Shown piece after piece: positions 1 through 12,806 of a stretch of DNA of 64,000 nucleotides; within the stretch, counting starts at the first letter, position 1, and the number at the start of each line of letters is the position of its first letter. Made by a program: the position numbers and the translations under genes. Source of the DNA: Candidatus Saccharimonadota bacterium (GTDB taxonomy: Bacteria > Patescibacteriota > Saccharimonadia > Saccharimonadales > Saccharimonadaceae); contig JAFQXL010000004.1 in the NCBI GenBank assembly GCA_017406985.1, forward strand, positions 59,708 to 123,707, written 5' to 3'. The notes beneath the pieces were generated by a model. The model made no database searches. It was given only the letters and a program-made list of their open reading frames with translations, and had not been told where the DNA came from.

Positions 1-189
1 CCCTTCTTGGGCGAAAGCCGACGCAAGGTTTGCGACGAGGAAAGATTTTCCATCGCCCGATTCTGGCGAAGTCATAAGAATAGTTTTAAAGTCTTTATCG
101 ACCGAAGAGAAAGTAATATTAGTTTTAATTAACTTAATCGCTTCTGCGAAAGACGATTTTGGGTTTGTTGCGACAATTAAATCTTCCAT
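1..189 (-). CDS. CpsD/CapB-family bacterial tyrosine kinase, 5' part (runs off window edge)
   Basis: Manual translation MEDLIVATNPKSSFAEAIKLIKTNITFSSVDKDFKTILMTSPESGDGKSFLVANLASAFAQEG; Walker A variant typical of BY-kinases; starts 2 nt after the cpsC-like stop. Confidence 0.85.
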   Translation of the reverse strand, partial: MEDLIVATNPKSSFAEAIKLIKTNITFSSVDKDFKTILMTSPESGDGKSFLVANLASAFAQEG

Positions 190-190
190 T

Positions 191-859
191 TTAAGCCTCC
201 ACTTTCGGGACAACACCAACAACGGTTAGTCCGAGTTTCTTTTCGACGGTTTCCGTATCTTTAACTGTTTTATCTAACATATATAAAAGCGTTCCGACGC
301 CGATTCCAAGGATTAAGCCGGCGACAATATATATAATAGTTTCTTTTACGACACTAATATTATAAGGACTGTCGCTTTTAACGGCTTTATCGACGATTTG
401 GACGTTATCGATTCCGTAGATGTTTTTAATTTCTTCTTTAAAGACCGAGCCGATTTCGTTCGCGATTAACTCGGCGCGTTCGTTATTTTTATCTGAGACT
501 TTAATCGTAATAAGCTGGGTAGAAGTTACGGAAGAAACAGAAACTTTAGAGGCGAGCGCTTCATAAGACTCGTCGAGTTCGAGGTTTTCTTTAACCTGAT
601 TTAAGACGTTTCTCGATTTAACGATCTCCGAATAAGTTTTAACGAGGTTATTCGAAAGAGTAACGTCGTTATAAGTAATTTGTTTCGTACTAGAGGAATC
701 CGAGATAAGAACGACGTTCGTACTCGAGCTATACATCGGAGTTTTTATGAGGTTTGTATAGACCTCACCCCCAGAGACGACTGCCGCTAAAATAATCAGA
801 ATTAGCCAGATTTTCTGGACTAAATAGAGCGACAGCTCTTTAAAGTTGATTTCTTCCAT
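191..859 (-). CDS. Wzz/CpsC/CapA-type polysaccharide chain-length regulator (BY-kinase membrane activator)
   Basis: Two TM helices flanking an extracellular loop; 'LVKTYSEIVKS' motif; C-terminal 'LGLTVVGVVP'. Confidence 0.85.
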   Translation of the reverse strand: MEEINFKELSLYLVQKIWLILIILAAVVSGGEVYTNLIKTPMYSSSTNVVLISDSSSTKQITYNDVTLSNNLVKTYSEIVKSRNVLNQVKENLELDESYEALASKVSVSSVTSTQLITIKVSDKNNERAELIANEIGSVFKEEIKNIYGIDNVQIVDKAVKSDSPYNISVVKETIIYIVAGLILGIGVGTLLYMLDKTVKDTETVEKKLGLTVVGVVPKVEA

Positions 860-888
860 AATTCTCCCAAATTAGTTAAATTAACTAT

Positions 889-917
889 ATTATAGCACAA
901 ACGGAATAAAAAATCAA
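889..917 (-). promoter_or_regulatory. sigma70 promoter for cpsC-cpsD
   Basis: TTGATT-17 nt-TATAAT with extended TG on the minus strand. Confidence 0.6.
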
Positions 918-941
918 GAGTTAGAACATAAAAGTCTAGGG

Positions 942-970
942 TTGATAAAAAAAGTGTGATTTGATATAAT
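942..970 (+). promoter_or_regulatory. sigma70 promoter of the tRNA-Tyr/Thr pair
   Basis: TTGATA(942-947)-17 nt-TATAAT(965-970). Confidence 0.65.
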
Positions 971-1014
971 TATGAAATCAGAGTGTGGTTGGCGCGAGCC
1001 AAGCTCTCTGATAC

Positions 1015-1099
1015 GCTGGAATCGTCTAGTGGCAATGACAAGAGACTGTAAATCTCTCGCCTTCGGGCTTCGTAGGTTCGAGTCCTACTTCCAGCACCA
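1015..1099 (+). tRNA. tRNA-Tyr(GUA)
   Basis: Cloverleaf: GCTGGAA/TTCCAGC acceptor, AGAGA-CTGTAAA-TCTCT anticodon arm, long variable arm, TTCGAGT T-loop, encoded CCA. Confidence 0.95.
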
Positions 1100-1100
1100 T

Positions 1101-1177
1101 GCCATCTTAGCTCAGTTGGCTAGAGCAGCCGCCTTGTAAGCGGCAGGTCGTCGGTTCAAATCCGACAGATGGCTCCA
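1101..1177 (+). tRNA. tRNA-Thr(UGU)
   Basis: Cloverleaf: GCCGC-CTTGTAA-GCGGC anticodon arm, TTCAAAT T-loop, encoded CCA. Confidence 0.95.
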
Positions 1178-1286
1178 TTTTTTATTTTGCGTTTTTAAGA
1201 AGAAAAGGCGTCTATCCGAACGCGGAAAAACATCGCGAAATCCAGAAGCTCTCGGAAGCAAAATTCGAAATATGAATCTTAAAGAG

Positions 1287-1314
1287 AAAAGACCGCGAAA
1301 AAGCGGTCTTTTTT
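1287..1314 (+). terminator. Intrinsic terminator after the tRNA pair
   Basis: aaaagaccgc-gaaaaa-gcggtctttt hairpin plus T-run. Confidence 0.7.
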
Positions 1315-1324
1315 AAAAAAGCTC

Positions 1325-1353
1325 TTTACAACAAAAGAATTTATGCTTATAAT
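1325..1353 (+). promoter_or_regulatory. sigma70 promoter upstream of the DGR target leader
   Basis: TTTACA(1325-1330)-17 nt-TATAAT(1348-1353). Confidence 0.6.
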
Positions 1354-1358
1354 GGAAT

Positions 1359-1609
1359 TGCAACAACATTTACATAAACGACGTGTTTATTTGATACCTT
1401 GTTTTAGGTATCAGGCAATACGACAGGTTAACGAATATTGCGCAGACATCGGCGTCACGAGAACCCGATAAAGTTCAATATTCGTTAACACGTCTATTGT
1501 TATGTAGATACGGTTGTTGCACTCGTGACGCCGTATTTGTTTACGGGGGATGTTCGTGGAAAGGCTTTCTCCTCTAAACAAACAACACTCATCTAAGGCG
1601 ACGTCACGA
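1359..1609 (+). ncRNA. Candidate structured 5' leader with pseudoknot (unknown family)
   Basis: Nested stems 1359-1387/1487-1521, 1392-1399/1406-1413 and 1427-1440/1476-1489 (perfect 14 bp); loop 1451-1461 is the exact complement of 1522-1532. Confidence 0.55.
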
Positions 1610-1639
1610 CCAAACATAAAATAAGGAGGTAAACTTAAA

Positions 1640-3343
1640 ATGGGTCGGGTGACTACAAAAACTAAACGGAGCGTGGATATTCTGACGATAGTCGGTGTCT
1701 TCTCCGGATTTTTATTATTAACATTATTAGCTGTGTATCTACACTCGCCGGTAATAAAAACCAGCGCGACAGACGAGGCTTCGAGCGCTTCGGTCTATGT
1801 CGAGCCGGTGGCGAGTATCTCGGTTGATCCAACGGTAAGTCTAGACATTACGCCGTCCGGAACGGGCGGAGTTGCCGATTCGGAACAACTCGACGTTAAA
1901 GTTATGACAAACGCGGAAGTCGGCTATGTTCTAAAGATGGCGGCGGAAGGAAGCTCGGCGGAAATGACCAGTCGAACTTCGAGCGATACAATTACTTCGG
2001 CCTTTACAGGCGGACTAACGCTCGAGAATATGTCGCCGAATACTTGGGGGTATTCGACTGATAACTCGACGTTCTATAAAGTTCCAGTAACTGGTAGCGA
2101 AGTTACGCTTGCTTCTCCAAGTAGCTCGACCGCGGAAGCATGGGAAACAACAACGATTTATTTCGGCGCGAAAGTCGACTCTTCGACCGAAGCCGGTTCT
2201 TATTCGAAGAACGTTGTCTTTACCGCAGTCGCGAACCAAAGACCACGAACTTTCTATGATATTACTTATATGCATGAGATGTCCTCGGCTATTTGTTCGA
2301 ACACCCCGACCGCTTCGAGCTATAGCGTAACTGCGACAACTCCAAACAATACCCTCGCAGAAGCGAAGACCGGAAACTATATCGCCCAGACGACTTTAAT
2401 CGACTATCGCGATATGAAGAGTTACCTTGTTCGTAAATATGCCAACGGCGAATGTTGGATGGCGCAGAACCTCGAGCATGATTTCTATTCGGCGGGAGAC
2501 TCTGTTGCGGACGGTTCTAGTAACACTGGAACTTATGCGACGACTTCAACCGGAATTAATACCTCCGCTAAGACAAACGCTGCTTCGACGCTCGGTTCGA
2601 ACAACTTTAGCAAATGGGTAAGTTATTCCGATATTAATAACGAAACCGCCTTTACGGCTTCTACGAACGCTTATGGCGCGGGTAAGTTTTACGCAACTCA
2701 GAACTTCTCTGGAAGCTCATATGGTTGGGCAGATAACGGAACCGACGGCGCGAGAAGCTATTCGACGAACGCGGCGGGCGCGGCGAACTATATTACAAAG
2801 ACTGGCTCGACGGCAGGTGACGGTTATTATACCTTCCAAGAATCGACAACTGGACAACCATATCAGAGAGTTGGTAACTATTATAACTTCGCAGCGGCGA
2901 AAGCCGGTTATCTCGGAACCGCAACTGGCGGTGATGACTCAAGCTCGACTTCGAGCACAACTGAAGTTCCTGATAACTCGATTTGTCCTCGTCACTGGAC
3001 TCTTCCGAAGAGCGGAACACACCTCGCTGGAACCGCTAAGTCCTTTGATAACCTAATTCGTCTTTACTATGGCGCAGACTGGACTAACGGCGCAAATAAT
3101 ACTACACTTTATAACTTCTTAAATGGAGCGCCGCTCGATTTCTGGCGTGCCGGCTTCTACTATCGTAGTTACGGTACGGTCGTCGATCGTACTACCAATG
3201 GCGGCTGGTGGTCTCGTAATGCCTCTTCTACCGCGGGTGCTAACGCCTTGGGTACCCGCATCAATAGTAATACGGGCTACGTCAATGCGCAGTATAGCTA
3301 CTACCGAGGCTACGGCTTGCCTATCCGTTGCGTAGTCCGCTAG
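1640..3343 (+). CDS. DGR target protein: membrane-anchored surface protein with Ig-like stalk and C-terminal Fib_succ_major/CLec-type domain
   Basis: N-terminal hydrophobic segment; 'CWMAQNL', 'GNYYNFAAA', 'ICPRHWTLP' and terminal 'PIRCV' motifs; C-terminus encoded by the VR; SD aaggagg. Confidence 0.85.
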   Translation: MGRVTTKTKRSVDILTIVGVFSGFLLLTLLAVYLHSPVIKTSATDEASSASVYVEPVASISVDPTVSLDITPSGTGGVADSEQLDVKVMTNAEVGYVLKMAAEGSSAEMTSRTSSDTITSAFTGGLTLENMSPNTWGYSTDNSTFYKVPVTGSEVTLASPSSSTAEAWETTTIYFGAKVDSSTEAGSYSKNVVFTAVANQRPRTFYDITYMHEMSSAICSNTPTASSYSVTATTPNNTLAEAKTGNYIAQTTLIDYRDMKSYLVRKYANGECWMAQNLEHDFYSAGDSVADGSSNTGTYATTSTGINTSAKTNAASTLGSNNFSKWVSYSDINNETAFTASTNAYGAGKFYATQNFSGSSYGWADNGTDGARSYSTNAAGAANYITKTGSTAGDGYYTFQESTTGQPYQRVGNYYNFAAAKAGYLGTATGGDDSSSTSSTTEVPDNSICPRHWTLPKSGTHLAGTAKSFDNLIRLYYGADWTNGANNTTLYNFLNGAPLDFWRAGFYYRSYGTVVDRTTNGGWWSRNASSTAGANALGTRINSNTGYVNAQYSYYRGYGLPIRCVVR

Positions 3344-3383
3344 GTCGTCTCCATCGTAGTTTTCCGCTACCAGCAGCTCGCGT
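3139..3383 (+). repeat. DGR variable repeat (VR), including 40 nt past the stop codon
   Basis: 245-bp ungapped match to the reverse complement of 5451-5695; 24 mismatches, 22 at TR adenines. Confidence 0.95.
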
Positions 3384-3432
3384 GAAAACGGAAAAAGGGC
3401 CGAAAAAAGTGGATTAAAACAGAGGAGATAAA

Positions 3433-4269
3433 ATGACGCTAGTCAACGAAAAGAAACCGGATAAGCTCGGAGCGAAACAAATGGTTCGCTCCGAGCGCGA
3501 GCGCTATCGGAAAATTAAAGCTACGATCTATGAAAAAGAACTGACGAACGATCAGCACGTATATGTTTATCGTTCGTCGAAAGAATGGTGGAAAGTCGGG
3601 GGAAACTCGGCGCTCTACTATAAATATATCCTCGGCCCGAGGCTGAAGGTTGCGATAAACCTGAAGCGGGACGAGGATCATTATTCTACCTTCAACTTTG
3701 GGGTTGTCTCGATTCGGGACATAAAAAGTTTCAAAGAGAGAATGAAGAAAGCGGGGATGGTTCCCGGGCCGGAAAACGATAACGCGATAAAGTTTTCGTT
3801 CAAGGAAAAAATTAGCCTCTCGACAATCGACGCAATCAAAGAAGATGTCGAGTTCCAGCACGAGCGGATAAACCGGCTGGTCGAGACGAGGAAGATTGCG
3901 CCGGACATGTTCGTCCTGATTCGCCAGTTCATGAGCGAATTTTGGCACTATTCAAAAAGATATAATAAATATGAAGCGCGGAAAACAATCACGAGCGAAG
4001 TTGTCGTCGAGATGATGAAAATGAAGCGGGCTTACGCCCACATGGCGAACGGAGATGTCGAAATTTTGGACGGGATGCTTGAGATAAAAAGTTGCGCCGA
4101 TTCCCTAATGTCGGATATTTCGTTTCTCGAAGAAGTAAAAGAAATGGGGTTCGACAAGGCGATGAAACTCAGTATGCACCTCGGAGATATAAAGCGAATT
4201 GTTAACCGCGAACTAAAAAAGGTGGTAAAAGAAAATGAGCGGATTAATTCTGACGGAAGATCGGAGTAG
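3433..4269 (+). CDS. DGR accessory protein: putative MutS-domain-I-like N-terminus fused to an Avd-like four-helix bundle
   Basis: Sits between VR and RT and overlaps the RT start by 35 nt; N-terminal pattern resembles MutS domain I; C-terminal ~115 aa helical and Avd-like (judged by eye). Confidence 0.65.
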   Translation: MTLVNEKKPDKLGAKQMVRSERERYRKIKATIYEKELTNDQHVYVYRSSKEWWKVGGNSALYYKYILGPRLKVAINLKRDEDHYSTFNFGVVSIRDIKSFKERMKKAGMVPGPENDNAIKFSFKEKISLSTIDAIKEDVEFQHERINRLVETRKIAPDMFVLIRQFMSEFWHYSKRYNKYEARKTITSEVVVEMMKMKRAYAHMANGDVEILDGMLEIKSCADSLMSDISFLEEVKEMGFDKAMKLSMHLGDIKRIVNRELKKVVKENERINSDGRSE

Positions 4270-5368
4270 GTTTTTTGACTATCTCGAACAGATGCTCTGG
4301 AGGGCGTATTATTGCGCGAGAAAGGGTAAGCGGACGACCGAAGACGAACATAAGTTCGAGATAAACGCGGCGGAGAATATACACCAGCTCGCAATCGACA
4401 TCATGACGCGAAACTATCGCCCGACGGTCGGGATTGCGTTTATAACGAAAGAGCCGGTAATCCGAGAGATTTTCGCGGCGCCGTTTCGAGACCGCGTCGT
4501 TCACCACGTTTTATTTAACGCCTGTAGCGGATGGTGGGACAGGCGACTTATCTATGATTCTTATTCTTGTCGCGTCAATAAGGGGACGCATTTCGGGATT
4601 AGGCGATTACACCACCACATGCAGGCTTGTTCGGAAAACTTTACTGTTCCCTGTACGATTGTTAAATTAGATATACAGGGATTTTTTATGAGCCTAGATA
4701 GAGAGAAGCTACTTAAACGGATTCTCTGGGGGCTAGACCAGCAGTTTAAAGGAAATTATAACGAGCTTTACCACGTTTTAAAGTTTCTTTGGACTTCGGT
4801 CATTATGGACGACCCGGTTCAAGGAGTTCGGCTCCGCGGAAAGCGGTCAGATTGGGACCAGTTACCGACAAATAAGAGCCTGTTTAATCAGCCGGAGGGC
4901 GTCGGAATCGTGATCGGGAACTTAACTTCTCAGCTCGCTTCGAATATTTTTCTCGACCCGCTCGATAGATATGTTATTTCGGATTTAGGGCTTAAACATT
5001 ATGGGCGATATGTCGACGATTTTTATTTTATCGTTCCGGATTCGGAGAAAGAATATGCGCTCGCTTGTATCGATACGATTTCGGAGTTTCTGTCGAAGCT
5101 CGGACTAACTCTACATCCGAAGAAACATTATATCCAGCCGATTTCACACGGCGTGCCGTTTCTCGGGGCGGTCGTTTATCCGCATTGTACCGTCCCTGGG
5201 AAGAGGATAAAGAAAGAGTTTATTCGGGCGGCTTATGAGTTTGCGTCGGGGTATGAGAGTATTGAGTCTTTGATTTCTTATATGGGAATGTTGTCGAATT
5301 TCCAGAGTGCGAAGTTCGAGAAAGAAGTGTTCGAGAGTTTAGGGTGGGATTATTATAGTAAGTTGTAG
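4235..5368 (+). CDS. DGR reverse transcriptase
   Basis: Motifs 'FRDRVVHH', 'KLDIQGFF', 'GIVIGNLTSQLASNIFL' and catalytic 'YGRYVDDF'; 377 aa with no maturase or endonuclease domain. Confidence 0.95.
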   Translation: MSGLILTEDRSRFFDYLEQMLWRAYYCARKGKRTTEDEHKFEINAAENIHQLAIDIMTRNYRPTVGIAFITKEPVIREIFAAPFRDRVVHHVLFNACSGWWDRRLIYDSYSCRVNKGTHFGIRRLHHHMQACSENFTVPCTIVKLDIQGFFMSLDREKLLKRILWGLDQQFKGNYNELYHVLKFLWTSVIMDDPVQGVRLRGKRSDWDQLPTNKSLFNQPEGVGIVIGNLTSQLASNIFLDPLDRYVISDLGLKHYGRYVDDFYFIVPDSEKEYALACIDTISEFLSKLGLTLHPKKHYIQPISHGVPFLGAVVYPHCTVPGKRIKKEFIRAAYEFASGYESIESLISYMGMLSNFQSAKFEKEVFESLGWDYYSKL

Positions 5369-5394
5369 GGGGCGTTTTTTATGCGCTTTTAGAA

Positions 5395-5440
5395 AAAACG
5401 TAGTGCTTAAGTTTCTTGCGATTCTTAAACACTACGTTTT
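5395..5440. terminator. Bidirectional hairpin between the RT 3' end and the TR 3' end
   Basis: aaaacgtagtg-c-ttaag (5395-5411) pairs with cttaa-a-cactacgtttt (5424-5440); A/T runs on both sides. Confidence 0.65.
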
Positions 5441-5450
5441 ATTTTGTTTA

Positions 5451-5695
5451 ACGCGAGCTGCTGGTAGCGGAAAACTACGATGGAGACGACCTAGCGGACT
5501 ACGCAACGGATAGAAAAGCCGTTGCCTCGGTTGTTGCTATTCTGCGCATTGACGTTGCCCGTATTACTATTGATGTTGGTATTCAAGTTGTTAGCATTCG
5601 TGGTAGAAGAGGCATTACGAGACCACCAGTTGCCATTGGTAGTACGATTGATGACCGTACCGTTACTACGATTGTAGTTGCCGGCACGCCAGAAA
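5451..5695 (-). repeat. DGR template repeat (TR), inverted relative to VR and RT
   Basis: Minus-strand copy carries 20 in-frame AAY codons where VR has substituted codons. Confidence 0.95.
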
Positions 5696-6109
5696 AATCC
5701 ACCGCCAAAGAACCGGTTAGTGCAAATGGCTCGAGCCTTATTCTAACGAGCCAAAACTCAGAAGAACAAGAGACCAAAGAGCTGCTTCTTCCCCGGACAC
5801 CCCGTAAAGCGTCCGGGTTCCGACCGGTTCGACTTTTACGTCGTTATCTGCGACTTTTTGAGTCGCTTTTGCGTCGGCTAGACTTCGCGAAAATGAAGTG
5901 AGCTCTCCAGCTCGCGTGGGGACAGCGTAGATTTCAAGTGGATAAGATACGATATTCCCGTAAGGTCCCTTGCACTTTTAAACGCTACGGATATTCCAGC
6001 TTATCATTTAACTTTCCACCTAGCTTCACATCCCCTAGTTATATTATAATGCTTATGGTTTTTTTGTGAGGTTTTGTGTAATATAGGATATTATGTTATA
6101 ATAATTCTA

Positions 6110-8910
<2,801 letters not shown>

Positions 8911-8919
<9 letters not shown>

Positions 8920-8939
8920 AAATAGAAATTTAATATAAT
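8911..8939 (+). promoter_or_regulatory. Near-consensus sigma70 promoter with no downstream + strand ORF
   Basis: TTGACT(8911-8916)-17 nt-TATAAT(8934-8939). Confidence 0.65.
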
Positions 8940-8945
8940 ATAAGC

Positions 8946-9030
8946 ATAAAAGAGAAGCTTCTTCTAGGAAGAAAACCTCTCTTATAACGAGTTGTTTAAC
9001 TCACCGATCGTCTGATCGGTGAGTTTTTTC
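8946..9030 (+). ncRNA. Candidate ~85-nt antisense sRNA
   Basis: Lies between the promoter above and a 12-bp terminator hairpin (8998-9009/9014-9025 plus T-run). Confidence 0.45.
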
Positions 9031-9093
9031 GAAAGTTGCCTTGAATCTTATTAAGTTCCAAAGAAACGAAACGTCTATACTTCTTTTAGTCAT
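9001..9093 (-). CDS. Small ORF, 30 aa (MTKRSIDVSFLWNLIRFKATFEKTHRSDDR)
   Basis: Manual translation; SD GAAAGGAGG at 9102-9110; extended -10 TGcTATACT at 9244-9252 on the minus strand. Confidence 0.5.
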   Translation of the reverse strand: MTKRSIDVSFLWNLIRFKATFEKTHRSDDR

Positions 9094-9258
9094 ATAGAAT
9101 TCCTCCTTTCTAACGAACTCGAACTCTCGGATTACCTAGAACTTCGCTTCTTGATGTTATCTTGAAGAGCGGGTTGAATTCGTTGAGAGATGCCCGTCTG
9201 TATAGAATTCAAACCTTGCTCAAGTTAAACCCCTCGTTTTTTCAGTATAGCATATTTT

Positions 9259-11448
9259 TTAGTTTCCGGCGAGAGAGTCGAACTCTTCGAGTGAAGAGAT
9301 TAAGACGTCGCGCGGTTTATTCCCGTTTTGAGGGCCGATAACGCCGATTTCTTCGAGCCAAATCGCGAGTCCAGAGACGAAGCCGTGTCCTTTTCCGAGG
9401 TAAGTCTGGAGCGAGGCGGTCGAGAACTTACCTTTAGAAAGCGTAATCTCGACGGCTTTTCGAACGACCGGATCATTCGGATCATAGCGACGGCCGAGGT
9501 CGCCGATCGCGCCGCCGTCGGACGGGCCGAGACCTTTAATCTGAACGGCCTGAGAGATGACTTCGTCGTTATATTCCGGAGCGCGCTGTTCTCTTAAGAA
9601 GTTTGTTAGTTTGTCGATGTCGGCGTCAGGAGCGAAAGCGCCCTGGATTCGGCGAGGCTTTCCCATCATTTCGGTTGTCAGCATAAGCATATCACCCTTT
9701 CCGAGCAGTTTTTCGGCGCCGCCCATGTCGAGCATGATGCGTGAGTCGGTATTATTATTAACGGCGAAAGCAATCCGTCCAGGGACGTTCGCCTTGATTA
9801 GACCGGTAATAACTTTAACTTCTGGACGCTGTGTTGCGAGGACGAGGTGCATACCGGCGGCACGACCTTTCTGAGCGATACGGACGATTAGCTGTTCAAG
9901 GTCTTTCCCTGCCTGCATCATTAAATCCGCCATCTCGTCGATAATAATCACGATATAAGGCATCTTTGTTCCGTCTTCAACCTGTTCCTTCGACATTTTA
10001 GTGTTATAGTCTTCGATTTTCTTAACCTTTTGTTCTGCCATCTCGGTATAACGACGTTCCATCTCGTTTACTGCCCACTTCATAGCGGAGAGAGCTTTAT
10101 CGGTCGAGTTTATAATCGGGGTTAAGAGATGCGGAATCGCGTCATATTGAACCATTTCGACCTGTTTTGGATCGACGATAATTAACTTTAAATCGCTCGG
10201 TGCGTTCCTGTAAAGGAGCGAAGATATAAGAGTGTTTGTCATAACGGACTTACCAGAACCGGTAGTTCCGGCAATTAAGAGGTGCGGCATTTTCGCGAGG
10301 TTCGCGACGACAGAGTTACCGGAAATGTCTTTTCCGACAGCGAAAGTTAAAGCGTGATTATCTGGCTTGTTCCACTCTTTACTTTCTAGAATGGCGCGGA
10401 GAGTTACGTCTGCCGGACGGACGTTCGGGATTTCGACGCCGACGCTTCTAGTCCCCGGAATCGGAGCTTCGATACGAACTTTATCAACCGCGAGATTAAG
10501 CGCTAATTCCCTATCGCGCGCGGTAATCTTCGAGAGGTTAACGCCGGCAGGCGGTTTCATTGTATACTGGGTAACGCGCGGGCCGACATTCGCGCCTTCG
10601 ACTTCGACGTCGATTCCGAATTCGGCGAAGGTAGATTTAATGATATAAGCGTTTTGTTGAATATTTCCGCCGTCCGGAGGAGTCTGTTTCTTCGAGAGAA
10701 GCTCGGTCGAAGGCATTTTCCAGTTCGGATCGGAAACGGTCGTAAGAGAGCGCTCCGGCTCTGGAGCCTTTGTCTCTTCGGAAGGTTTCTTAATATTAAG
10801 TTTTCGGTTTTCTTTGTCTGCTTCGATAATCGACGGGGCGTTAATCTTGAGGTCTTTAAGCTTTCCGGTTCCGGCTTCGACATTTGCTTTCTTGGCGATT
10901 TTAGCGTTTTCGCGGTCTTCGCTTTGACGAGTTCCCCTAAAGAGATTTCCAATAAAGCGGAAAACGGAAGCAGGCGAAATCGACAGGATAAAAATCCCCG
11001 TAATAAAGATAAGAACGGCATAAAGGAAGAAAACTACGCCTTTATCGAGAATCTGTGTCGCGACGGAGTTTAGGCTTTCGCCGAGGATTCCGCCAGTCGG
11101 GTTCGGTTCGCCAATCGTCGGGACGCCGAAGATTCCGGCGAGCCAAGCAACCATAATAATGCTCGCAAACCAAGTCGAAAGAGGAAGCTGGTTCGTTTCG
11201 CTTCGGAAAATCATTACTGCAAGATAAACAAGCAAGACAGGGATAAAATAAGAAGCGTAGCCGATTAGATAAAGAGTTCCCTGATGGATATTATTAAGAA
11301 GAGTTCCTCCGCTTCCGAACCAAGTCATAACTAAAGTTACGGCGATGGCGAGAAGAAGAACCGCGCCAACCTGACGCCAGAAACCACCCGGAAGCTCATG
11401 TTCAGGAGCTACATCCCTTGTTTTACTTTTACGTTTTTTCCTAGCCAT
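9259..11448 (-). CDS. ftsK: FtsK/SpoIIIE DNA translocase
   Basis: N-terminal TMs; 'MPHLLIAGTTGSGKS', 'IIIDEMADLM', 'GMHLVLATQRP', gamma domain. Confidence 0.95.
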   Translation of the reverse strand: MARKKRKSKTRDVAPEHELPGGFWRQVGAVLLLAIAVTLVMTWFGSGGTLLNNIHQGTLYLIGYASYFIPVLLVYLAVMIFRSETNQLPLSTWFASIIMVAWLAGIFGVPTIGEPNPTGGILGESLNSVATQILDKGVVFFLYAVLIFITGIFILSISPASVFRFIGNLFRGTRQSEDRENAKIAKKANVEAGTGKLKDLKINAPSIIEADKENRKLNIKKPSEETKAPEPERSLTTVSDPNWKMPSTELLSKKQTPPDGGNIQQNAYIIKSTFAEFGIDVEVEGANVGPRVTQYTMKPPAGVNLSKITARDRELALNLAVDKVRIEAPIPGTRSVGVEIPNVRPADVTLRAILESKEWNKPDNHALTFAVGKDISGNSVVANLAKMPHLLIAGTTGSGKSVMTNTLISSLLYRNAPSDLKLIIVDPKQVEMVQYDAIPHLLTPIINSTDKALSAMKWAVNEMERRYTEMAEQKVKKIEDYNTKMSKEQVEDGTKMPYIVIIIDEMADLMMQAGKDLEQLIVRIAQKGRAAGMHLVLATQRPEVKVITGLIKANVPGRIAFAVNNNTDSRIMLDMGGAEKLLGKGDMLMLTTEMMGKPRRIQGAFAPDADIDKLTNFLREQRAPEYNDEVISQAVQIKGLGPSDGGAIGDLGRRYDPNDPVVRKAVEITLSKGKFSTASLQTYLGKGHGFVSGLAIWLEEIGVIGPQNGNKPRDVLISSLEEFDSLAGN

Positions 11449-11524
11449 ATAGTTATATTATAACATAAGGTTTATGGTTTTTAGTTGAAAAAAAGCAAGC
11501 TTTGCTTGCTGTTTTTTCTTGAAA

Positions 11525-11601
11525 TGGTACCCGTGAAGGGACTCGAACCCCCGACACCTTGTTCCGAAGACAAGTGCTCTAATCCACTGAGCTACACGGG
11601 C
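11525..11601 (-). tRNA. tRNA-Arg(UCG)
   Basis: Cloverleaf with CTTGT-CTTCGGA-ACAAG anticodon arm, TTCGAGT T-loop, encoded CCA. Confidence 0.9.
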
Positions 11602-11624
11602 TTTTCTATATTATAACACATCTA

Positions 11625-12806
11625 TTATTTTTGGTAAAACTTTACGTTTCCGAGTTCTTTCGGGAGATAAGAAGTATTTAAGTGAAAACCGGCTTCCCAT
11701 TTCTGTCCTTTTCCGAAACCTAAATCTTTCATTAACTTCGTCGGGGCGTTTCGAAGCTCAATCGGAACAGGGAGGTTCATTGAGTTCTTCGCGGCTTCTT
11801 TCGCGCGGAGAAAAGCGTCATAAGAAGCGCGACTCTTTTTCGAGAGAGCGAGAGCGGTCGCGACATGAGATAAGATAATCTGACACTCGGGCATTCCGAC
11901 GCGTTCGGTCGCCTCGAAAGCGGCGACAGCGAGATTTAGTCCGCCGTTTCCGGCGAGTCCAATATCTTCCGAAGCAAAAATAACCATTCGGCGAGCAATA
12001 AACTTCGGATCTTCGCCCGCTTCTAGCATTCGCGCGAGGTAATAAAGCGTTGCGTCGACGTCGGAACCACGCATAGATTTTATAAAGGCGGAAATATTAT
12101 CATAATGTTTATCGCCGGCTTTATCATATCCGGGGACTTTTCTCCCCGCCGCTTCTTTAACGACTTCTTCGTCGACTTTTTCAGAAAGACTAAGCGCTAG
12201 TTCTAAATCGCCGAGGGCGCTTCTAGCGTCGCCACCGGAAAGCTCGGCGAGATAATCAATCGCCTTTTTACTAACTCTTTTAGTCGCTTTTTCGGCTTTT
12301 ATCGCGCGTTTTAAAACTTCGATAATCGCGTCTTTACTAAGGAGATTTACGATAACGACGCGAGAGCGAGAAAGAAGCGGAGAGATAACCTCGAAACTCG
12401 GGTTTTCGGTCGTCGCGCCGATTAGGATAATTAAACCACTTTCGACGTGCGGAAGAAAAGCGTCTTGTTGTGCCTTATTAAAACGGTGGATTTCGTCGAC
12501 GAAAAGGACGGTTTTTATCTGTAAGTTCCAGTTTGTTTTTGCGCGTTCGACGACAGTTTCAATATCCTTTTTCCCGGCGGTAACGGCGGAAAGCTCGATA
12601 AAGTCCGCCTCAAACTCTTTTGCGAGAATACGCGCGAGCGTCGTTTTTCCCGTCCCTGGAGGCCCCCAAAAAATTAAGTTAACCGGTTCGCCTTTCTTGA
12701 CGATTTCGGTTAAAATCTTCCCTTCGCCGATTATATCGTCTTGGCCGACGACTTCGTCGAGGCTAGTCGGGCGCATCCGCTCCGCTAAAGGTCTCCGATT
12801 TTCCAT
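11625..12806 (-). CDS. rarA: Replication-associated recombination protein A (RarA/MgsA)
   Basis: 'PLAERMRP', 'WGPPGTGKTT', 'DEIHRFNKAQQD', 'SAFIKSMRGSD'. Confidence 0.95.
   Translation of the reverse strand: MENRRPLAERMRPTSLDEVVGQDDIIGEGKILTEIVKKGEPVNLIFWGPPGTGKTTLARILAKEFEADFIELSAVTAGKKDIETVVERAKTNWNLQIKTVLFVDEIHRFNKAQQDAFLPHVESGLIILIGATTENPSFEVISPLLSRSRVVIVNLLSKDAIIEVLKRAIKAEKATKRVSKKAIDYLAELSGGDARSALGDLELALSLSEKVDEEVVKEAAGRKVPGYDKAGDKHYDNISAFIKSMRGSDVDATLYYLARMLEAGEDPKFIARRMVIFASEDIGLAGNGGLNLAVAAFEATERVGMPECQIILSHVATALALSKKSRASYDAFLRAKEAAKNSMNLPVPIELRNAPTKLMKDLGFGKGQKWEAGFHLNTSYLPKELGNVKFYQK

Follow-up and report, generated by a model that had tools for sequence, protein, structure and literature searches.

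[quoted passage not shown] The BPP-1 DGR RNA consists of the 3' end of avd, the template repeat (TR) and the spacer Sp (Handa et al., 2018, PMC6182149; PDB 8ub7/8ub8). The whole 140-nt Sp lies downstream of the TR. Read from 5' to 3', it begins with an Avd-binding stem-loop, the primer strand Sp47-56 and two nucleotides, continues with the stop-duplex strand Sp59-70, whose partner is located upstream of the TR, and a small stem-loop, and ends with unpaired adenosines, a thumb ring and an RT-binding stem-loop (10.1101/2023.10.23.563531). The first nucleotide to be reverse transcribed, TR G117, is immediately 5' of the TR:Sp duplex (TR117/Sp56; PMC6182149; 10.1101/2023.10.23.563531).

DGRs of CPR bacteria (Patescibacteria) have been described as architecture B3, TR-(avd)-RT (Wu et al., 2018, PMC5758913), and as clade 2 of Roux et al. 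(2021, PMC8144416). The locus studied here shares with both the host phylum and a reverse transcriptase (RT) with the DGR motif. Its gene order is not that of B3, being target, accessory protein, RT and antisense TR; the presence of TR and RT on different strands was already noted by Wu et al. (2018). We found no description of an upstream spacer or of a 5'-located priming module in the DGR literature searched. The published conservation survey of DGRs covered 40 nt on the upstream side of the TR and 100 nt on its downstream side, and would therefore miss such an upstream module.

Here, we analyse a DGR within a 64-kb stretch of DNA (hereafter the window, to which all coordinates refer unless stated otherwise) together with its relatives. 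Our comparisons suggest that its template is probably encoded by a stand-alone DGR template RNA gene, in which a 10-bp helix would be the conserved template:primer-type helix of a 5'-permuted DGR RNA.

An active DGR with an antisense template repeat

The locus is an active DGR, with a target gene carrying a variable repeat (VR), an accessory protein of Avd fold, an RT and an antisense TR:

1640..3343, plus strand: DGR target gene, 567 aa, from the list of open reading frames
3139..3383, plus strand: VR, 3' end of the target gene, with the stop codon at 3341-3343 and then a 40-nt unmutated tail
3433..4269, plus strand: accessory protein gene, 278 aa, characterized by an AlphaFold2 model and Foldseek
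4235..5368, plus strand: DGR reverse transcriptase, with an RVT_1 Pfam match, IGNLTSQ and YVDD
5451..5695, minus strand (sense strand): TR, 245 nt, from comparison with the VR

The target gene has no Pfam match. In the RT, whose gene (4235-5368) is overlapped by that of the accessory protein (3433-4269), IGNLTSQ at residue 227 and YVDD at residue 259 correspond to the DGR motif [I/L/V]GxxxSQ and the YxDD site. The TR lies downstream of the RT and antisense to it, the template cassette and the RT genes being convergent. Over 245 nt, TR and VR show 25 differences, namely 22 A-to-N and 3 T-to-N. A metagenomic contig with 97% identity to the window, L054, carries a TR that is 100% identical to that of the window, and the two VRs differ at 16 TR-adenine positions, which indicates that this DGR has been active recently. 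A non-adenine TR/VR difference, TT-to-GC at 3319-3320, is present in the VR of the window and not in that of L054. As originally predicted, the 40 nt that follow the VR stop codon are the same in TR and VR in our alignment, five unmutated adenines included, and no strong cruciform follows the VR, DNA structure there being at chance level (z = +0.69).

Pfam and PDB sequence searches gave no family for the accessory protein, which was identified by fold comparison alone. In an AlphaFold2 model built on 40 homologues (pLDDT 93) and compared by Foldseek, the C-terminal four-helix bundle matches BPP-1 Avd (4dwl_E; TM 0.84, rmsd 2.0) and also the Avd chain of a DGR ribonucleoprotein (8ub7_C; TM 0.80). 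As modelled, the protein is composed of an N-terminal alpha/beta domain and this C-terminal Avd-fold bundle. The N-terminal domain, of about 125 aa (residues 1-125, window 3433-3810), has invariant K29, E36, S59 and D80 and gave no convincing Foldseek match.

A predicted stand-alone template RNA gene

The predicted cassette would span 6048-5389 of the minus strand: a -10 promoter comes first, then about 340 nt of structured spacer, the TR of 245 nt and finally a terminator. Its ends are marked by the following features:

6065..6070, minus strand: -35-like hexamer CTCACA, weak evidence, absent from L054
6043..6048, minus strand: -10 box TATAAT of the predicted TR-RNA promoter, retained in L054 and recurring in relatives
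5389..5440, minus strand: predicted intrinsic terminator, a 17-bp hairpin and U6, from the fold; possibly also a protein-binding stem-loop

The promoter originally predicted here combines CTCACA (6070-6065), a 16-nt gap and TATAAT (6048-6043), with 10 of 12 consensus matches; a promoter scan by itself stays at chance level, with 2 sites against 1.3 expected. Homology between L054 and the window ends about 8-12 nt upstream of the -10 box, at about 6056-6060, because the neighbouring queA-tgt-sua5 block is inverted in L054. Since this limit falls between the two hexamers, the -10 box belongs to the cassette and the -35 hexamer does not. A TAWAAT box is found 55-150 nt upstream of the 5' strand of the helix described below (P1) in 25 of 28 relatives (1.7 expected), 13 of them with a TGn extension, and it is present even where the cassette sits just downstream of the target gene. 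The -10 half of the predicted promoter thus recurs in relatives, whereas the -35 half is not conserved. The inverted block covers 6061-9258 in the window and 5256-8134 in L054, with a breakpoint at about 6060; owing to the short distance of this breakpoint from the -10 box (about 8-12 nt), both the upstream neighbour and the -35 region differ between the two sequences.

Between the predicted start near 6036 and the TR start at 5695, the expected 5' spacer of about 340 nt contains no open reading frame of note. At the other end, the announced hairpin with a T-run is recovered in the minimum-free-energy fold as 17 bp (5440-5424/5411-5395) followed by six U, located between the TR end, 10 nt away, and the RT stop codon, 21 nt away. 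The whole predicted RNA of 647 nt folds better than shuffled sequences (z = -5.8).

Of 369 genomes from the same genus of Candidatus Saccharibacteria, 185 carry the RT clade to which this element belongs. About 100 loci were taken and their TR/VR pairs called automatically, yielding 62 non-redundant cassettes. The TR is antisense to the RT and downstream of it in 57 of these 62; the VR is on the RT strand in 44, as in the window, and the other 13 have a target gene convergent with the RT and a TR placed after the VR. An inverted, separately transcribed TR therefore appears to be the rule in this clade. This layout and the recurrent -10 box agree with the original prediction of a stand-alone cassette, and we infer that 6048-5389 of the minus strand is a self-contained template RNA gene, separately transcribed as drawn.

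A long-range helix at the end of the TR/VR homology

The two strands of P1 bracket the TR:

5908..5917, minus strand: P1 5' strand ACGCGAGCUG, proposed primer strand, exact complement of 5460-5451
5451..5460, minus strand: P1 3' strand CAGCUCGCGU, last 10 nt of the TR/VR homology, preceded by G5461, the predicted first templated nucleotide

The complementarity is exact over 10 nt, as had been claimed, with 5917-5908 (ACGCGAGCUG) matching 5460-5451 (CAGCUCGCGU), and in the ensemble fold nine of these ten pairs have probabilities of 0.87-1.0. Over all 64 kb of the window, the 10-mer CAGCTCGCGT is found at three sites: the VR end, the TR end and, in inverted orientation, the 5' spacer. The expected number is 0.13, and none of 100 shuffles contains as many as three. 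If the cassette is considered by itself, a 10-nt match of the TR-end zone to the spacer has p of about 0.04 by shuffling and 0.005 against other TR positions. The fold also extends P1 into the TR (5908-5901/5476-5469), an extension that has no comparative support and was rejected.

Direct alignment of the window spacer with that of its nearest genome relative, L002, found no alignable sequence, and we therefore used position-based tests of complementarity. For each locus, a 13-nt zone closing the TR/VR homology on its 3' side was compared with the 450 nt that precede the TR, and the longest perfect complement was ranked against the same statistic at every other TR position. Over the 62 loci the signal is strong (Fisher p = 2e-12), with a perfect match of at least 8 nt in 28 loci and of at least 7 nt in 43. 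In most cases the partner strand precedes the TR start by 70-230 nt, and the sequences paired at one locus are unrelated to those paired at another. When the 3' flank was taken as the partner instead, the 62 loci gave no signal (p = 0.83). Nineteen of the 62 lack a perfect match of at least 7 nt, and some of these have one-mismatch helices. The original prediction would have failed had the match been absent from homologues; instead, it recurs across these loci at the end of the TR/VR homology, each time in a different sequence. A compensatory change is directly visible between two tandem cassettes of L055, which pair as CGCGAAACG/CGTTTCGCG and CAGCGAAACG/CGTTTCGCTG. These cassettes (L055 4629-5543, minus strand) each have their own TATAAT and spacer module; in the second, the TR is reduced to its last 81 nt, with a terminator.

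A covariance model built from a MAFFT alignment, of low power (0.44 bits per position, 6 matches at E<=1), recovered held-out modules upstream of TRs in sense orientation. At mismatches flanking P1, G-U and A-C combinations numbered 8 and 14; this absence of a G-U excess gives no strand-specific support. A metagenome scan with the RT gave no match.

The signal extends beyond the clade. In 18 distant DGRs of Patescibacteria, mostly with the TR upstream of the RT and on the same strand, a complement of the TR end is found upstream (p = 0.005), typically near -100 from the TR, and the downstream side shows no signal (p = 0.96). Six of them (L130, L133, L135, L136, L137 and L140) have a motif resembling AUAAAAUACAG after a small hairpin, about 50-60 nt upstream of the TR; it comes after the strand complementary to the TR 3' end and has no Rfam match. 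A second DGR of the RT clade is present in the same 731-kb genome as that of the window (G000 contig C1 38966-40054, L034), with an RT of 55% identity and the antisense-TR layout of the window. The pairing of its primer-like strand is located about 16-27 nt past the point where the TR/VR homology ends, and a terminal helix of 5' GGGGGAA with 3' UUCCCCC comes directly after this pairing.

A TR/VR mismatch hotspot beside the helix

We aligned 27 loci on the 5' end of the TR-side P1 strand and compared TR with VR, a feature that had not been used in choosing the helix. At position -1, just 5' of P1, TR and VR differ in 12 of the 27 loci (8/10 when the TR base is A, 4/17 otherwise). A single mismatch is present among the 270 cells of positions -12 to -3 (10 positions in each of 27 loci), and in the first 6 nt of the P1 strand one A out of 18 is mutated. 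The contrast of position -1 with positions -40 to -2 is significant (Fisher p = 4e-5). The hotspot is seen in the relatives only, since the -1 nucleotide of the window, G5461, is the same in TR and VR.

The simplest reading that fits this hotspot is that the helix boundary is the start of the cDNA. No mutations are seen at the adenines that separate the VR body from position -1, and this requires an additional assumption, either selection or the rejection of cDNA ends with mismatches in the tail. The pairing had originally been proposed to mark the start of reverse transcription or an IMH boundary, and both the recurrence of P1 and the mismatch peak at -1 support such a role.

Other elements of the spacer

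Besides P1, the predicted spacer can be divided as follows:

5918..6036, minus strand: 5' domain, a long imperfect hairpin of 118 nt with 5' AGGGGAU at the predicted start, from the minimum-free-energy fold
5900..5907, minus strand: purine-rich linker GAGAGCUC, proposed stop-duplex strand; consensus of relatives G/GGAG/GAAG..C
5882..5899, minus strand: hairpin P2, ACUUC/GAAGU with an 8-nt loop, from the fold and relatives
5876..5881, minus strand: CUAGCC, window version of the conserved (G)UCUA / CAAUAC motif after P2, from relatives
5696..5875, minus strand: variable part of the spacer with hairpins 5866-5850, 5817-5792 and 5785-5722, from the fold

The closing stem of the 5' domain (6035-6030/5923-5918) directly abuts P1. 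A 5' G-run shortly after the -10 box recurs among relatives, and in many of them it pairs with a C-run a few nt 3' of the TR (Fisher p = 0.011); such a pairing would stack on the same end of P1 as the closing stem of the 5' domain. This C-run partner is absent from the first 70 nt after the TR of the window, where a C-run is found instead just 5' of P1. The stop codon TAG of the RT is followed by GGGG (5366-5372), and the minus strand here, CCCCCUA, with CCCCUA at 5371-5366 overlapping the stop codon, complements the 5' UAGGGG of the predicted TR RNA. This C-run might serve as an alternative partner in a terminal helix, should transcription continue past the hairpin.

Among relatives, the linker finds its partner 10-40 nt ahead of the TR, with a perfect complement of at least 7 nt in 10 of 38 loci; mismatched pairs of loci reach 7 nt in 2.4% (permutation p<2e-4). 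In the window, the systematic test gives a 4-nt match in the expected zone, and inspection gives a weak candidate at 5907-5901/5782-5776. Relatives have a hairpin at the place of P2 with different stems (CCUCGG/CCGAGG, CCUUC/GAAGG, CCUG/CAGG), and this segment is more stably folded than its shuffled versions (mean z = -1.03, Fisher p = 3e-7). For P2, counting pairs in the MAFFT alignment gave a weak result, with 60% of cells paired and few double changes, because the alignment failed to place the stems in register.

Two hairpins of the variable part, at 5817-5807/5802-5792 and 5866-5861/5855-5850, had been singled out in the original prediction. Both are indeed present in the minimum-free-energy fold but neither is conserved: in L054, a deletion of 46 nt (about 5823-5868) removes the gcgact/agtcgc hairpin together with one of the two strands of a predicted 8-bp helix, and a G-to-A substitution affects the stem at 5817-5792. 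With one deleted and the other weakened in a contig of 97% identity, these hairpins do not behave as essential elements. The 8-bp helix in question (5830-5823/5717-5710), considered as a conserved element from the fold, was discarded on the same ground. The segment 5823-5868 appears to be dispensable, the VR of L054 having diverged at TR adenines despite the deletion. Judging from the relatives, the conserved elements of the spacer are instead the linker, P2 (5899-5882) and the 5' domain.

Comparison with known systems

The resemblance to BPP-1 concerns the arrangement of the elements. In both cases the 3' part of the TR forms a duplex with a strand of the spacer, and the nucleotide templated first, predicted here, is just 5' of that duplex; the order of elements is the same through to the adenosines, a stem-loop domain precedes the primer strand, and a DGR RT is accompanied by a partner of Avd fold. 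The original prediction had invoked BPP-1 as a precedent for priming by flanking RNA. The logic of the elements is indeed shared, but the priming RNA is 3' of the TR in BPP-1 and would be 5' of it here. All spacer elements of the Saccharibacteria module lie 5' of the TR, as in a circular permutation, and the spacer is thus not downstream as it is in BPP-1; the 3' flank offers only 40-80 nt before the RT stop codon is reached, about 80 nt in the window. The RNA of the window also differs from that of BPP-1 in being a predicted separate transcription unit antisense to the RT, in using the very last nucleotides of the TR/VR homology for its helix and in having no sequence similarity to BPP-1 RNA, and its accessory protein has an extra N-terminal domain of about 125 aa. 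The stop duplex of BPP-1 has a counterpart in 10 of 38 relatives, and the window shows the 4-nt match and the weak candidate mentioned above. RNA of the BPP-1 type is primed in cis from a 2'-OH of the spacer, which gives a branched RNA-cDNA; a priming chemistry of this kind may apply to the window.

Rfam gave no match at E<=1 in window 1-12000 except tRNAs and chance-level matches, and none at E<=0.1 in 15 related loci, orphan RT-associated motifs being included in the search. In topology only, the cassette recalls retron msr-msd RNA, in which a terminal or long-range helix brackets the template and the start of reverse transcription adjoins the helix on the same RNA. Nevertheless, the RT of the window is of DGR type, without msDNA logic or an effector gene, and its template is a copy of a coding sequence that is written back into a gene, so that this is not a retron.

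Proposed mechanism and alternative explanations

The spacer is probably the functional counterpart of BPP-1 Sp, placed 5' of the TR, which makes the RNA circularly permuted. In this model, the spacer strand 5917-5908 would pair with 5460-5451 to form P1, a template:primer-type helix, and a complex of the RT and the Avd-domain protein would start the cDNA at G5461, just 5' of P1, priming from the end of the spacer strand. With priming from that end, the TR would be copied in the form of a P1-closed loop. Of the elements that come after the primer strand, the linker would correspond to the stop-duplex strand of BPP-1, P2 to its stem-loop and the A-containing motif to its adenosines. We infer that P1 positions the active site and that priming uses either a 2'-OH or a 3'-OH.

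Alternatively, P1 could be a real and conserved helix with a structural role, a clamp that holds the TR loop closed, makes the RNA more stable or sets its 3' end, with priming occurring otherwise, for instance from nicked target DNA or a separate primer. The conservation of a helix is by itself no proof of priming, the comparison of G-U with A-C mismatches was uninformative, and the unmutated state of the intervening adenines is not obviously expected if the whole cDNA from -1 is transferred. We nevertheless consider a purely structural role unlikely. The sharp TR/VR mismatch peak adjoining P1 is what an initiation site predicts; the primer strand, the linker pairing upstream of the TR, the hairpin and the A-motif mirror the priming module of BPP-1, and the accessory protein has the Avd fold.

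At the DNA level, the same 10-bp match is an inverted repeat with copies 447 bp apart, which could serve site-specific or homologous inversion of the TR segment, and the neighbouring queA block is indeed inverted in a related strain. However, the sequence of the repeat is different at every locus and no recombinase gene is linked to it; the TR segment has the same orientation in L054, whose breakpoint is elsewhere (about 6060), and the partner strand is embedded in an orientation-specific module with its own promoter. Such a role is therefore highly improbable. A chance match without function is the least credible explanation. The shuffling test within the cassette alone, with p of only about 0.04, would leave some room for it, but it is contradicted by the comparative statistics, namely the P1 test over 62 loci, the count of the 10-mer, the hotspot at -1 and the 18 distant DGRs. 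The reading that we favour thus remains that of a template:primer-type helix in a permuted DGR RNA.

Implications for DGRs of Patescibacteria

The window and about 60 relatives suggest that the priming logic of BPP-1 may operate with the RNA parts arranged differently along the molecule, and from a gene of its own on the strand opposite to the RT. They also offer natural covariation as evidence for a template:primer helix, and the hotspot at -1 could be a footprint of the initiation site that is visible in genomes. We tentatively extend this reading, as possible rather than probable, to DGRs of Patescibacteria (CPR) as a group: they may use a circularly permuted RNA whose primer, stop, stem-loop and protein-binding parts lie 5' of the TR, often as a stand-alone non-coding RNA gene, with the first templated nucleotide copied at low fidelity and carried into the VR. 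If this is true, transfer would include the cDNA up to its very 5' end, whereas in BPP-1 the IMH boundary is internal, and the RNA primer strand, taken together with the cDNA, would be collinear with the VR and its tail on the antisense strand. For elements of the CPR type, annotators and engineers should then seek the required flanking RNA upstream of the TR, and these cassettes may provide compact, testable designs for programmable mutagenesis.
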